The notes beneath the pieces were generated by a model. It was not told where the DNA came from. It worked only from the letters and a program-made list of their open reading frames with translations, and did not search any database. From NCBI GenBank assembly GCA_039545335.1, contig BCIN01000003.1, forward strand, positions 1,871,941 through 1,935,940: a stretch of DNA of 64,000 bases, read 5' to 3'. The DNA is from Kondoa subrosea (Eukaryota). Position numbers and translations under genes: made by a program. Below, piece by piece: positions 22,870-52,003 of this stretch. Positions within the stretch are counted from its first letter, which is position 1. Each line of letters starts with the position of its first letter.

Positions 22870-23359
22870 AGGCAGAAGAAGCAGCAATTATGGACCTTGC
22901 ATCGGAAACCCTTCTGATCAGTCGAAGGGGAATGTGAGCTCTCATATCCTACCAAGGCCTGATTCTGATGAGCTATTCAGATCAAACTGCTTTGCTATCC
23001 ACCCTACCTATGTCACTTCTTGGGATTGATAGCTCGACAAGCAATGCTCTGGCATACAGATATACGGGTTTGAGCGATGCAGGCCTATGTGTAAACGGGG
23101 ATCTCAAGTCTACAGTGATATTCGAGTATCGATGTAATACTCGATTTGCGGACTAAGCTGGATGTCTGACTAAGTAACTCAACGCACAAGCTGTGCATCG
23201 CGCTGGATTCCCCTGACATGCTTCTCTCGTCAAATGACGCGCCACTTCAACATCTACTTCTGCGTGTTTATTAATTTCTCTCTTTCTCTCCTCCTTCTCA
23301 AACCATTCGCTTCTTCAATCTTCACTGACCCTCACACAGCCTAATCAATCACTTCAATA

Positions 23360-25354
23360 ATGGCAGACGACGTGAGTACAACGCTTTATAAGCTTACTAC
23401 GCTCATTTTCGCTCGCAGAACCAAGAGGGCCAATTCTTCATGTGAGCCTTTCTAAGCAGCTCTACAGATCTCGACTGATCATACATCAAGCTCTATTGAT
23501 GCTCTACAAGAACTCGGAATCTCTGCTGCTGATCTAAACAAAGTCAAAGCGAGCGGAAGTAAGTCATTGTCGCTCTCATCATCTCTCTTTCCTTACACCT
23601 CTATAGTCGCCACTGTACTTGGTGTTCAGCAGTAAGCACTGCTTCTTGTTGCTGTATCATCTCGGAGCGTTATCGTATGCGCAGAGCAACTCGAAAGACC
23701 TTGACCAAAATTAAAGGTAGTGTCTTTCTTGTATGCTCAGTCCCATCTCTCTTACATACATTGAGTAGGCATGAGCGATGCTAAAGTCGACAAACTCAAA
23801 GATGCTGCAAACAAAGTCTTACCTAGCTCTTTCAAGACGGGTGCAGAAGTCGCTAATCACAGACAGAGCGGTAAGTAGCGCTCTCCCAATGCGACACACT
23901 CCGCTGATCTGACTGTATGCAGTCGTCATGATCAGCGTTGGTAGCAAACAAGTTGATGCTATGCTGTAAGTTTCCCTTCCATTGTCGTCTGTTTTATCAT
24001 GTACGTATTGTTTCGCGTAGCGGAGGAGGTGTCTCTACTCAATCCACTACTGAAATCTATGGCGAATTCCGAACTGGCAAAACTCAACTTTGTCACAGTG
24101 AGATATCTTGCCATCTCATTTCTCGCTCTGGCTGATCAAGTGAATCAGCTCTTTGCGTTACTGCACAACAAGACATTGCTGATGGTGGTGGCGCTGGGAA
24201 AGTCGCTTACAGTGCGTTTACTTTTTCTCCTTTAATGGTTGTTGGGATTAACTGGCCAATGTAGTTGATACCGAGTAAGATTACTCTTTTATCATTCAGA
24301 CGGATGCAATTGACATGCGGATATAGAAACACTTTCCGTCCTGATCGAATCAAAGCTATTGCCGATCGCTTTGGACTTGACGGTGAAGCAGCTCTTGAGA
24401 ATGTGAGCTCTTTTGCCTGCAGTCACTTTGATTCACTTACCTGTTTGGTATTCTTCAGATCGTTGTCGGTCGAGCTCTCAACAGCGAACATCGTGAGTTT
24501 CTTCGAGTCGGATTATCGTGCCACCGACCAGATATGACAGAGATGGATTTGATTAATGCTCTCGCTGCAAAGTACGCCGTGGTCTCTTCGATAGTAACGA
24601 AGTTCGCTCATATGTATGCTTTTTGACTGCCATAGATTCGCCGACGAAGGAAGTTTCAAGCTTTTGGTAAGTCTTCCGCCTTGTAGCTTGTACGATAGCT
24701 CATGCTCACTATGCACTATACAGATCATTGACTCTATTCTTGCTTTGTTCCGTGTTGATTTCTCCGGTCGAGGCGAATTGTCAGAACGTCAACAGAAACT
24801 GAATCAGATGCTTGCTCGTTTGACTCGTATCAGTGAAGAGTTCAACATTGCTGGTGCGTTATTTGGAAGCCTATACTAGGTGATCCTCACCGCTTCTTGC
24901 TTGCTCCAGTTGTATATAGTGCGTGTCTGATAGAAACCGGAATTCTTTCGGCTCTGACAAGTGGATTAGCCAATCACGTTCAAGCAGATCCTTGAGTTGT
25001 CTTCTTTCTCTTTTCTGATAACGCGCTCATAAATGGTTGTTCAGTGGTGCTTCAAGCATGTTTGCCGGTGCAGCGGACAAAAAGGTAGACTGCTCTCTAT
25101 ATGGGAACAACCTACATTCAGCTAATTTCTGTTCGTCAACGGCCCGTCGGAGGGCATGTCTTGAGTCACGCTTCTACAACTCGAATTTCTTTGCGCAAAG
25201 CCCGTGGTGAAGAACGTATTGCTAAACTTGCTGACTCTCCCGACCAACCTGAAAGTGAAGCTTCATACAAGGTTGCGCACGTCAATCTACTTCTACCGCA
25301 TATCTGCTTATTCTGATGTGGTAGATTGCTGCTGGCGGAGTCTGTGATGTCTGA
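23360..25354 (+). CDS. DMC1: Meiotic recombinase Dmc1 (20 exons; two non-canonical splice sites)
   Basis: [58 protein letters not shown] (QQKL is Dmc1-type), [22 protein letters not shown]. Confidence 0.92.
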
Positions 25355-25733
25355 GTTTTTCGTTCAAGGAGAAGATTCTGTGATCGTTCCGCCGGCGTTC
25401 TTACTATTCATTGTCGATACCGTTACATTGATATTCCTTCAAGATTCGTGGACCTCAACATGTATTATGAAACATAATAGAACAAATGGCAAAATCCCTT
25501 GAAGCTGCACTATCGATTTCTGCCTTCAATTTCCCTTTCATGCTTCTAGCCTAATCACCTTACTCATTACAATCCTCTTTCATGTTAATTCAGTTTGCTC
25601 TTCGCGAGCATCTATTTGTTCCTTTGTTGTTTAGTCTGGCCGTTTGTCGGTCCATCCCTTTGTAACCTCACAACGCCTGTTGTTATCAATCTCTTCTCTT
25701 TCTTCCTATCATCTACATCCAATTTATCGAGAC

Positions 25734-49593: not shown

Positions 49594-52003
49594 TTAATCT
49601 ATTCTCAGCTCTGAATATATCTTGCGCAAGAAGAAATAGGCTAGAGTTCTGTCAGAGAATTCTGCAGAAAACACAGTCGCTAGAACATACTCGAGAGGAA
49701 ACCGATCGTTCCCTGTGGAAAGATATCGATCATGAGAGATGGAAGATCGCACTTCGGCGTGAGCTTACTGTTATTAGCCAATTCACACTGGCCAGCGCAA
49801 GTAGATATCCAACGTAGAGAATCCTCGAGGAGAGACCGTTTAATGATAATCGAGTTGCCCAATAACCCAAGCCGTCTGTCACGCAAATCGGAGCCGTCGT
49901 AACTTTGGCCAACAAATTGACTCACAGAGTATAAGCCAAAACGAACTGCCTGCTCCAACCTCAAACGAATACCAATGCCAATTCCAGTCTTCCGCACAAA
50001 GCTTGAAGTCTGTTGGGATTCAGTCATTCGTATGTACCTGGTCAGAGCTTGTGACTTACAGACAAGTAAGATAGTTGAGGTCGAAGTAGTCACTGCAACG
50101 ACAAGAGACGCCAATGCAATAAAGCCAGTTGCGTAATACAATTTAAAGCCGAACACGTTGTTCATTAGCGACGACAGCTCAACGAAAGCCTAACAGAGAC
50201 TATCAGCTTTAGTTGAATTTTTCAACAGTGAAATGGCCGACGGCAACAAAAGGCATGAAGCCAGCGATCAAGACAGAAGGCCAGAACTTGAGGTATATAG
50301 GATTGGAAGGTATTTGACGTGGTATTGACTGAACTGGGGTTGGTGTATTTAATGGCCTGAAAAACAACGTCAGTTCGTGCTTGTGATTTCCGATACGCCA
50401 ACCTACCCTCTCCGAATACCCATAATAGAACCAACAAAGCAGAGCGGTACAGAAATGCATAACCAGAGCAGAAACACAACAAGCATAGTTCCGAGTGGTA
50501 GTGCGCCAGATGAATGAGTCCAGATCAGTACGAAGTTGAGCATAGCGAGAAGAGCCATCAAGCATCTGTAATTTACTTTAGCTCTTAACACAAGAGGAAT
50601 ACATACCACGCACGCTGGATAAGAAACTGCAGTAGCCAGCGCGTTCTTCTTCCAATCCTGCCCTTGCATCGTAGCATATGCAATCGAGGACACATAGCCA
50701 GCTACGTATCCATAGATCATGTACAGAACAAGCATGATTGTAATCAGACTGCCTCGGGCGGAAGGCGACAAGAAACCAAAGAGCGCAAAGATGAGTGTTG
50801 AGGAATACATGGCGATCAATTGAGCTCCAGTTCCAACTGCTACTGCCAACCCCATTCGATGCTTCGTTGGCGAACGAAAGACTTCTCCGTAAAGCAAGCG
50901 CCAGCCTTGATCCTCAACTATTCCCTCATCCAGATCCATAGAATTGTAAGCTCGTAAATCCTTGTTGACGGCTCGAAGCAGGATGACAGCTACCATAGAG
51001 ACCAAGAAAAAGCAGATAGCTACAGCGTTGAAAAGACTTAGCCAATGTATTGACGGATTGATGATGCTGAATTAGTCCGTCAGTCGCATTCTCGCTCCAC
51101 GAAGAAGTAGAGTAACCTACGTCAGATACAGATCCCATCTGCTAGCCCATTTCACAGCCGAAGGTTTCCAGATCACGTCGTACGTGAATGCAAATGTATT
51201 GTCCTTGTCCTCTGACAGCCTTAGCCTTTGCTTGCTGTTGCAATCCTTTCCATCTCTATTCAGTCTACTTCCAGGTTGAACGATTACGGAGATAACTCTA
51301 GCCAATTCAGGCGTTCGTTGATGGTATTCCAATAGGATTTCGTAATGGTTCATCATTGCTAAAGTAGCGGTTTCATTTGGAGCGCTGATCTCTGGCATGT
51401 ACGCGCCTAGGAGGAATCCTGGCGCAAGGATCATGTTATCGTTTGATTGATCTTGATATATTGGCTGAGCAGCAGGCAATCCGTCAACTTGATTGCAGAT
51501 TCAGCATGAAGAAGGGTGGAGGTAGGAAAGGGCCTGCCTAGGAGATTGATATACAGCTCATCCTGTATTCTTTGGTTCACAAACTTTGCATCTTCCGCTG
51601 GTATTTTAGCAATACACAGAAGCTTGCAAGTTTCGTCGACTTGCATCGGGAAACAATCAGATCCTATCGCCTCCATTTTGAGGAAAGGATTCCTACCTTG
51701 CATTTTCACATCATAAGGCGAATTGAAGAGTCTATCGCCGGATAAGATAGAACCCAATCCTTCTGGTTGTGCTTTCGGTCCAGCAGAAGGTTGACAAAAA
51801 TGGAACTGAGGTGTGTAATAGTCATAGCTGATTAGAGACTGGATCTGATTATCTTGCGATGGAGCTGGCGTCAATGTGTTCACCAGAACAGGGACATTCT
51901 CTCCGCGTTCAAAGTCTCGAGGCGCAGAGCCAGGTAAATAGAAGCTTAAGCATTTTGGTATCGAAAGCAACGCTAGGAGTGCTGTGAAGGGTAGCTTTGG
52001 CAT
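49594..52003 (-). CDS. Transmembrane 9 superfamily protein (Emp70/Tmn-like)
   Basis: FYLPGSAP, YDYY..QFHFC, LGSILSGDRL, WASRWDLYL, IHWLSLFNA, GWRLLYGEVFR, IPRQIP, C-terminal IY...RID. Confidence 0.93.

Follow-up and report, generated by a model that had tools for sequence, protein, structure and literature searches.

Substitutions at two invariant splice-site positions of DMC1 in Kondoa subrosea: a probable young loss-of-function allele

Classical null mutations of splice sites include the substitutions +1G>T and -2A>G, which null alleles and incipient unitary pseudogenes carry as single hits on G+1 and A-2 of consensus sites. Here, we describe a DMC1 gene that has taken one hit of each kind. 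The gene lies in a stretch of 64,000 nucleotides (nt) from Kondoa subrosea (GenBank assembly GCA_039545335.1, contig BCIN01000003.1, positions 1,871,941 to 1,935,940 of the forward strand), which we call the window and in which all positions below are counted. It resembles the classical null alleles in the bases that are changed and in the predicted outcome, which is intron retention or use of a cryptic site with a premature stop. It differs from them in that two hits fall in adjacent introns of an otherwise intact gene. Judging from the sequence, we assign a probability of about 0.78 to the reading that DMC1 has here become, through two derived point changes at invariant sites, a very young unitary pseudogene or loss-of-function allele.

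Other described systems also resemble this locus in part. In the Mer1/Nam8 regulon of Saccharomyces cerevisiae (AMA1, MER2, MER3, and SPO22), meiosis genes carry nonconsensus introns. As described in the available portion of PMC3082912, however, those introns keep GU and AG (GUAUAU, GUAGUA, AAG), depart from the consensus at +3 to +6 or at their branch point, and contain the enhancer AYACCCUY, whereas in the window it is invariant bases of DMC1 that have changed, intron 17 starts with TT, and the enhancer is absent. A meiosis-specific recombination gene has been disabled in fungi before, in the case of Msh4/Msh5 in the Eurotiomycetes (bioRxiv 10.1101/750497, in the part of the preprint available). 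That case concerns another gene and another phylum, and the decay of DMC1 considered here would be at its very first stage, affecting splice sites only. Finally, GC-AG introns of the U2 type and AT-AC introns of the U12 type share with the two DMC1 introns the lack of GT-AG ends, but we rejected membership in either class because the termini here are TT-AG and GT-GG.

The DMC1 gene model and its two noncanonical introns

The spliced coding sequence (CDS) of DMC1 comprises 987 nt (328 codons plus stop), and its sole stop is the terminal one. All 19 introns are 47 to 64 nt long, and 17 of them are GT-AG. This coordinate model confirms the open 20-exon gene that had been proposed by a sequence-only reading of the window, made without database searches. 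In an alignment, the conceptual protein has a Walker A motif as well as the Loop-1 Gln and the Loop-2 Pro-Gly (ADPG), the residues that distinguish the Dmc1 lineage from Rad51, which has Val-Asp at the latter position (PMC7809202, in the part of the article available). We also scanned single exons with the NCBIfam DMC1 model and with the RAD51 model, a setting in which whole-protein cutoffs are not applicable to the scores. Exons 15 and 19 favored DMC1 (Table 1), exon 6 matched the DMC1 model alone with no RAD51 match, and the Walker A exon (exon 8) went against this trend by scoring slightly better on RAD51 (37.5 versus 35.2 for DMC1). The best database matches of exon 15, a 43-residue query with no more than 95% identity to any match, are named DMC1 and come from rust fungi and Microbotryomycetes. 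Identity of the full-length conceptual protein to full-length proteins of other classes is 67 to 72%. By these sequence comparisons, the gene is the DMC1 orthologue of a yeast-like fungus of the Pucciniomycotina whose nearest named relatives are Microbotryomycetes. Within the collections searched, this small-genome fungus has no close relative among sequenced organisms.

The gene is extremely intron dense, with approximately one intron per 52 nt of CDS. In addition to the micro-exon 16, for which the aligner gave an alternative and likewise canonical placement, there are exons of 10 nt (24265..24274) and 12 nt (23360..23371). A Microbotryomycetes-like metagenome locus (L037, aligned with guide P0041) has 19 DMC1 introns as well.

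The two noncanonical introns bracket exon 18, the coding sequence for the Loop-2 core. Intron 17 interrupts the Pro codon of the Dmc1-specific Pro-Gly; its first bases are t24992 and t24993, and its terminating AG is at 25043-25044. The next GT, at 24996-24997, sits behind an in-frame TGA. Intron 18 is bounded by the GT at 25085-25086 and by g25141 and g25142. The sequence-only reading had described an intron 17 beginning TTGAGT with a TGA on read-through and the next GT beyond that stop, an intron 18 ending CAACGG downstream of a branch point, and an upstream AG that would add seven codons. All of these features are present in the bases, with the branch-point-like motif reading CTAAT and the seven codons arising through a 37-nt intron. 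Its assignment of the region to the loop that binds single-stranded DNA agrees with the available part of PMC7809202.

To place the introns, we used a spliced aligner based on dynamic programming, which allows any intron ends at a cost, with 12 Dmc1 proteins as guides. The TT-AG intron was placed with all 12 guides and the GT-GG intron with 11, the exception being the guide from Coprinopsis. When noncanonical ends were forbidden, none of the 12 guided models retained both the Loop-2 exon and exon 19. We then walked exhaustively from exon 17 to exon 19, allowing for shifted borders, cryptic donors (GT or GC) and acceptors (AG), skipped exons, and as many as 4 introns. Not one of the 3710 stop-free, in-frame GT/GC-AG paths retained Loop 2, and the best of them scored 184.8, compared to 257.6 for the model with TT and GG ends. 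Together, the canonical paths and the guided models predict that standard splicing would not yield full-length DMC1.

One of the canonical paths uses the GT at 24978 and the AG at 25121, a 144-nt intron whose removal would fuse exon 17, in frame, to the sequence beginning 21 nt ahead of exon 19. That path (24978..25121) keeps the frame and exchanges Loop 2 for seven unrelated residues. Several other ways of restoring ordinary introns were considered and rejected. Sequence identity permits the borders to move by a single base, which gives TG-GT and GG-CG, so the ends are not canonical either. A U12-type reading of ATCCTT beside the donor is unfit in frame and terminal bases, and nested (twin) introns fail because no internal GT..AG restores a canonical end. 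RNA editing from A to I goes in the wrong direction, and an inversion of the 151-nt unit is contradicted by a reverse complement without GT..AG.

Table 1. Positions of the features discussed, in window coordinates
Feature	Position	Strand	Description
DMC1 gene, ATG to stop	23360..25354	+	20 exons, 19 introns; coordinate model plus spliced alignment to 12 Dmc1 proteins
Exon 15		+	43 residues; 78.9 bits with DMC1 model TIGR02238, 47.4 with RAD51 model TIGR02239
Exon 16 (micro-exon)	24910..24918	+	9 nt, flanked by two GTGCGT...AG introns
Exon 17	24970..24991	+	22 nt; final two bases are the first two of the Pro codon in Loop-2 Pro-Gly
Intron 17	24992..25044	+	53 nt, phase 2, TT-AG (TTGAGT...GTTCAG); invariant G+1 changed to T
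In-frame TGA	24993..24995	+	Met at once if intron 17 is retained or GT 24996-24997 serves as donor
Exon 18	25045..25084	+	40 nt (13 codons plus last base of the split Pro codon); core of DNA-binding Loop 2 (residues per available part of PMC7809202)
Intron 18	25085..25142	+	58 nt, phase 0, GT-GG (GTAGAC...CAACGG); invariant A-2 changed to G; donor without G+5
Upstream AG	25120..25121	+	As acceptor: 37-nt intron, 7 extra in-frame codons
Branch-point-like CTAAT	25122..25126	+	17 nt before 3' end of intron 18
Exon 19	25143..25271	+	43 codons, DMC1 model positions 263-305; 68.1 bits DMC1, 53.2 RAD51
First AG downstream of the damaged acceptor	25164..25165	+	Use removes 23 nt, frameshift
GC-AG intron of EMP70/TM9SF	51537..51488	-	GCAGGC...ATCAAG; found with 3 of 3 guides
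In-frame, stop-free stretch of EMP70	51402..51367	-	36 nt; noncanonical intron with 2 of 3 guides, coding with the third
RNA-dependent RNA polymerase domain, PF05183	53911..56802	+	Three long open reading frame pieces

Origin of the substitutions

Apart from the changed bases, the damaged sites are good ones. Across the canonical introns of DMC1 and of two control genes from the window, EF-Tu and EMP70, the positions G+1, A-2, and G-1 are invariant (38/38). The intron 17 donor is otherwise strong, its GAGT at +3 to +6 ranking above 30 of the 38 canonical donors. The CAAC context of the intron 18 acceptor ranks above 21 of the 38 acceptors, among which ACAG is the commonest ending (n = 15). Each resembles a consensus site in which a single base has been replaced, GTGAGT having become TTGAGT and CAACAG having become CAACGG, as would be expected if good sites had taken one hit apiece.

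GTAGAC, the donor of intron 18 (25085..25090), is weak because it lacks the otherwise near-invariant G+5, as do the donors GTAGTG and GTTGCG (23717..23722 and 25272..25277). Such donors make up 3 of 19 in DMC1 and 0 of 21 in EF-Tu and EMP70 (Fisher P = 0.098), and overall donor strength did not differ between DMC1 and the controls (Mann-Whitney P = 0.54). The absence of G+5 from intron 18 may represent a third lesion, a small one, within the same 150 nt.

All minor noncanonical combinations together account for 0.257% of annotated fungal introns (PMC7072748, Table 1, in the part of the article available). At that rate, finding at least 2 such introns among 19 has a binomial probability of 0.0011. 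The local comparison of 2/19 DMC1 introns with 0/21 control introns is underpowered (Fisher P = 0.22). In the controls, all 11 introns of EF-Tu are GT-AG with the closest guide (P0241), and EMP70 has 9 GT-AG introns and 1 GC-AG intron after removal of one long N-terminal alignment artefact. The aligner called one noncanonical EF-Tu intron, in the poorly conserved N-terminal part, with each of two other guides (P0244 and P0250); we regard these calls as spurious. Modeling the control genes from the junctions of high-scoring segment pairs was abandoned, as short exons were missed and distant guides blurred the junctions.

Could the two bases be sequencing or assembly artefacts, with G the true base at 24992 and A at 25141? 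This is extremely unlikely. Among public runs, 23300..25400 was found in only two DNA runs (X1 and X2), which come from one sample and have contig sets of approximately 19 Mb each, and in no RNA run. Run X1 gave no contig over this interval, which may be a filter effect. A contig from run X2 (22,010 nt; word depth 53.5, a single figure that gives no copy number) spans 24392..25400 with 0 differences and 0 gaps. A consensus error, which the sequence-only reading had raised as a concern, is ruled out by this separately built contig, and a change private to that culture stays compatible with it. The sample is possibly the source of the assembly itself, so the check is not independent of culture or library, which is the point that an artefact has in its favor. 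Against it, two errors exactly on invariant splice positions would be improbable in a region that is otherwise free of frameshifts, and the neighboring EF-Tu and EMP70 genes give clean canonical models. The X2 contig ends at 24392 in a loose end of 29 bases that resembles library adapter; the upstream half of DMC1 is outside the coverage of this contig.

For comparison with other DMC1 genes, one metagenome scan provided 54 loci, none from the same genus and the best of them 69% identical to the window protein. The Loop-2 neighborhood is spanned by 50 of these loci, 38 of which together contain 50 introns there, and 47 of the introns were called canonical. The 3 noncanonical calls, in loci L010 and L017, were 35 to 37 nt long, at the minimum of the aligner, and became canonical at 30 to 39 nt once shorter introns were allowed. 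The DMC1 genes of L010 and L017 have very short introns (30 to 45 nt), all 19 of them canonical (18 GT-AG and 1 GC-AG).

Two of the loci have introns at exactly the positions in question. In L003, the Pro codon that corresponds to the one interrupted by intron 17 contains a phase-2 GT-AG intron (120 nt), and L036 has a phase-0 GT-AG intron (88 nt) at the same Lys-Pro junction as intron 18. Furthermore, GT-AG introns of L022 and L028 lie within 2 nt of the position of intron 18. The closest relative seen, a 220-residue fragment (P0012), has the exact Loop-2 peptide and the Asn in DTENTF in common with the window protein, and it reads straight through the Loop-2 region with no intron. Since introns at the same positions are GT-AG elsewhere and P0012 has none, both intron positions are, on this comparison, old, and the TT and GG ends derived rather than conserved. 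The sequence-only reading had looked to conserved non-GT/AG ends in orthologous introns as support for regulation, and the orthologues contradict this; relatives with canonical introns, which it had associated with a pseudogene, are what L003 and L036 provide. All 11 rust and Microbotryomycetes Dmc1 proteins inspected are continuous through Loop 2. They are predicted proteins, and we infer from their continuity that the introns there are canonical or absent. In a Puccinia-like Dmc1 (P0008; JGI, 287 amino acids, 1088-nt contig), the frame switches exactly at the Lys-Pro junction of intron 18, which could reflect a sequencing slip or the use of another acceptor in a transcript from a rust.

State of the gene and competing explanations

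By the logic of the sequence, the changes of G+1 to T and of A-2 to G, together with the TGA on read-through, would prevent a full-length product. We propose that two old, once canonical introns flanking the Loop-2 exon each took one point substitution, with T replacing G at +1 of intron 17 and G replacing A at -2 of intron 18. In intron 17, recognition by U1 and U6 and the first step of splicing would fail, and the intron would then be retained, or the GT four bases downstream used, with the TGA encountered either way. In intron 18, the second step would be unable to use GG and would turn either to the AG 23 nt downstream, causing a frameshift, or to the upstream AG, adding the seven codons. 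The outcome would be no full-length Dmc1. The locus would then be a young unitary pseudogene in a lineage that propagates asexually, or else the changes would be confined to the sequenced strain.

The age of such an inactivation is constrained by the coding sequence. If the gene is dead, its intact frame and normal rate of evolution indicate that inactivation was very recent. That splice sites would be hit before anything else is not odd, because in DMC1 they are a larger target than nonsense changes. In an intron-dense gene, the splice dinucleotides form the largest target for inactivation (in DMC1, 209 weighted changes compared to 99 for nonsense), and the probability that the first two lesions are both splice hits is 0.06 to 0.45, depending on the indel rate assumed. 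In support of a loss of function, the window protein shows a mild excess of changes at conserved columns. It departs from 8 columns that are at least 95% conserved, including Gln to His in TNQV and Gly to Ala in RKGRG, two residues that P0012 keeps in their conserved form, and 44 of the 54 compared proteins have fewer such departures.

Several observations nevertheless weigh against a loss of function. The 328 codons contain neither stop nor frameshift, and there is no acceleration of rate in the coding sequence (P ≥ 0.15 in 12 of 12 relative-rate comparisons). The identity of the protein to those of other classes equals that between rust and Rhodotorula (69%). The relaxed constraint expected of a pseudogene was thus not found. 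Two of the odd residues are shared with Dmc1 proteins that presumably work: Wallemia has the His, and a sponge has the Asn of DTENTF. The positions of the lesions are a further difficulty. Adjacent introns are hit in 72 of 703 possible site pairs (0.10), and an upstream donor plus a downstream acceptor, the outer ends of one intron-exon-intron unit, in 18 of 703 (0.026). For independent random hits, this clustering, which we noted post hoc, is mildly surprising, and it is the one feature that the pseudogene reading leaves to chance. In addition, the search for further copies of the gene was confined to the 64-kb window, and we infer the splicing outcome from the sequence.

The clustering would fit a meiosis-specific splicing lock, in which the TT donor and the GG acceptor would be used only under a meiotic factor or a meiotic state of the spliceosome, so that functional Dmc1 is made only in meiosis. 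The odd sites do bracket a single functional cassette, the Loop-2 exon, for which the chance is the 0.026 to 0.10 just given. The frame is fully intact, the protein rate normal, and the branch point, intron length, and other site positions are normal as well; the donors without G+5 would also fit. Moreover, meiotic genes of budding yeast are under splicing control (PMC3082912), and greater flexibility has been reported for 3' than for 5' splice sites (PMC7072748), in the available parts of both articles. Even so, we consider a lock quite improbable. The changes fall on positions that are invariant in every canonical intron examined locally. As far as the same part of PMC3082912 describes them, Mer1/Nam8 targets keep GU and AG and need the AYACCCUY enhancer, and DMC1 of budding yeast itself is 95% spliced without Nam8. 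We found 0 matches to AYACCCUY on both strands of 23300..25420. Introns at the same positions elsewhere are GT-AG, and the closest fragment is intronless there, so the ends are not conserved. Finally, the minor splice-site combinations that are so rare in fungi have been tied by Frey and Pucker to low expression and pseudogenes (PMC7072748, available part). The sequence-only reading had offered regulation and early pseudogenization as alternatives; it is pseudogenization that fits this evidence, while the lock is opposed by ends that are not conserved, by hits on invariant positions, and by the missing enhancer.

A stronger version of the same idea, in which the two changes form a device that fences the Loop-2 cassette with a U-initiated donor and a GG acceptor, both barred to the vegetative spliceosome and usable in meiosis, is scarcely plausible. 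If it were true, active Dmc1, which is dangerous in mitotic cells, would be made only in meiosis, and introns without G+1 or A-2 would for the first time be seen in regulated use. The rules of splice-site recognition would need revision if such sites were used, and nothing that we found points there.

An intact frame with its first disabling hits would fit a recently redundant copy equally well, and an intact DMC1 paralogue might lie elsewhere in the genome, beyond the window to which the copy search was confined. We regard a decaying duplicate of this kind as unlikely. In the loci and protein sets seen, which were not surveyed systematically for paralogues, DMC1 is always single. The copy in the window retains a complete ancestral structure, rich in introns and with intron positions common to distant taxa, and it sits among ordinary housekeeping genes with no repeat or transposon seen. 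Loss of function in the orthologue through two point changes, therefore, remains the reading that we prefer. The lesion is of an ordinary kind, in an interesting gene.

Genomic surroundings and significance

The DNA of the window is approximately 45% G+C, with short introns. The closest named proteins to the product of its mitochondrial EF-Tu gene (11 introns in a CDS of approximately 1.4 kb) are from Microbotryomycetes, at 80 to 83% identity. In JGI data, a Dmc1 fragment (P0018) and an EF-Tu (P0259) list the same longest contig of 45,142 nt, an indication that some relative may have EF-Tu and DMC1 linked, as they are in the window. In the EMP70 gene, the 36-nt stretch on which the guides disagreed (Table 1) is probably a 12-codon lineage-specific insertion. 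An RNA-dependent RNA polymerase gene of the RNA interference type lies approximately 29 kb downstream of DMC1. Other neighbors encode Pex16, a synaptojanin-like phosphatase, Tho1, a WD40 protein, a CoA-transferase III, DBP10, TGT, an SNF2 helicase, a class I tRNA synthetase, and a CRAL-TRIO protein. An Rfam scan of the window gave 0 matches, and a repeat scan of the DMC1 gene recovered short pairs at chance level only.

For annotation, the two introns mean that standard gene finders will truncate or skip DMC1 here, and inventories of the meiotic toolkit would mis-score the gene, counting it as absent or else as present and intact. If the changes prove to be species-wide, they would be the genomic footprint left when a yeast lineage of the Pucciniomycotina very recently lost its capacity for meiotic recombination, with the first lesions caught ahead of any decay of the reading frame.

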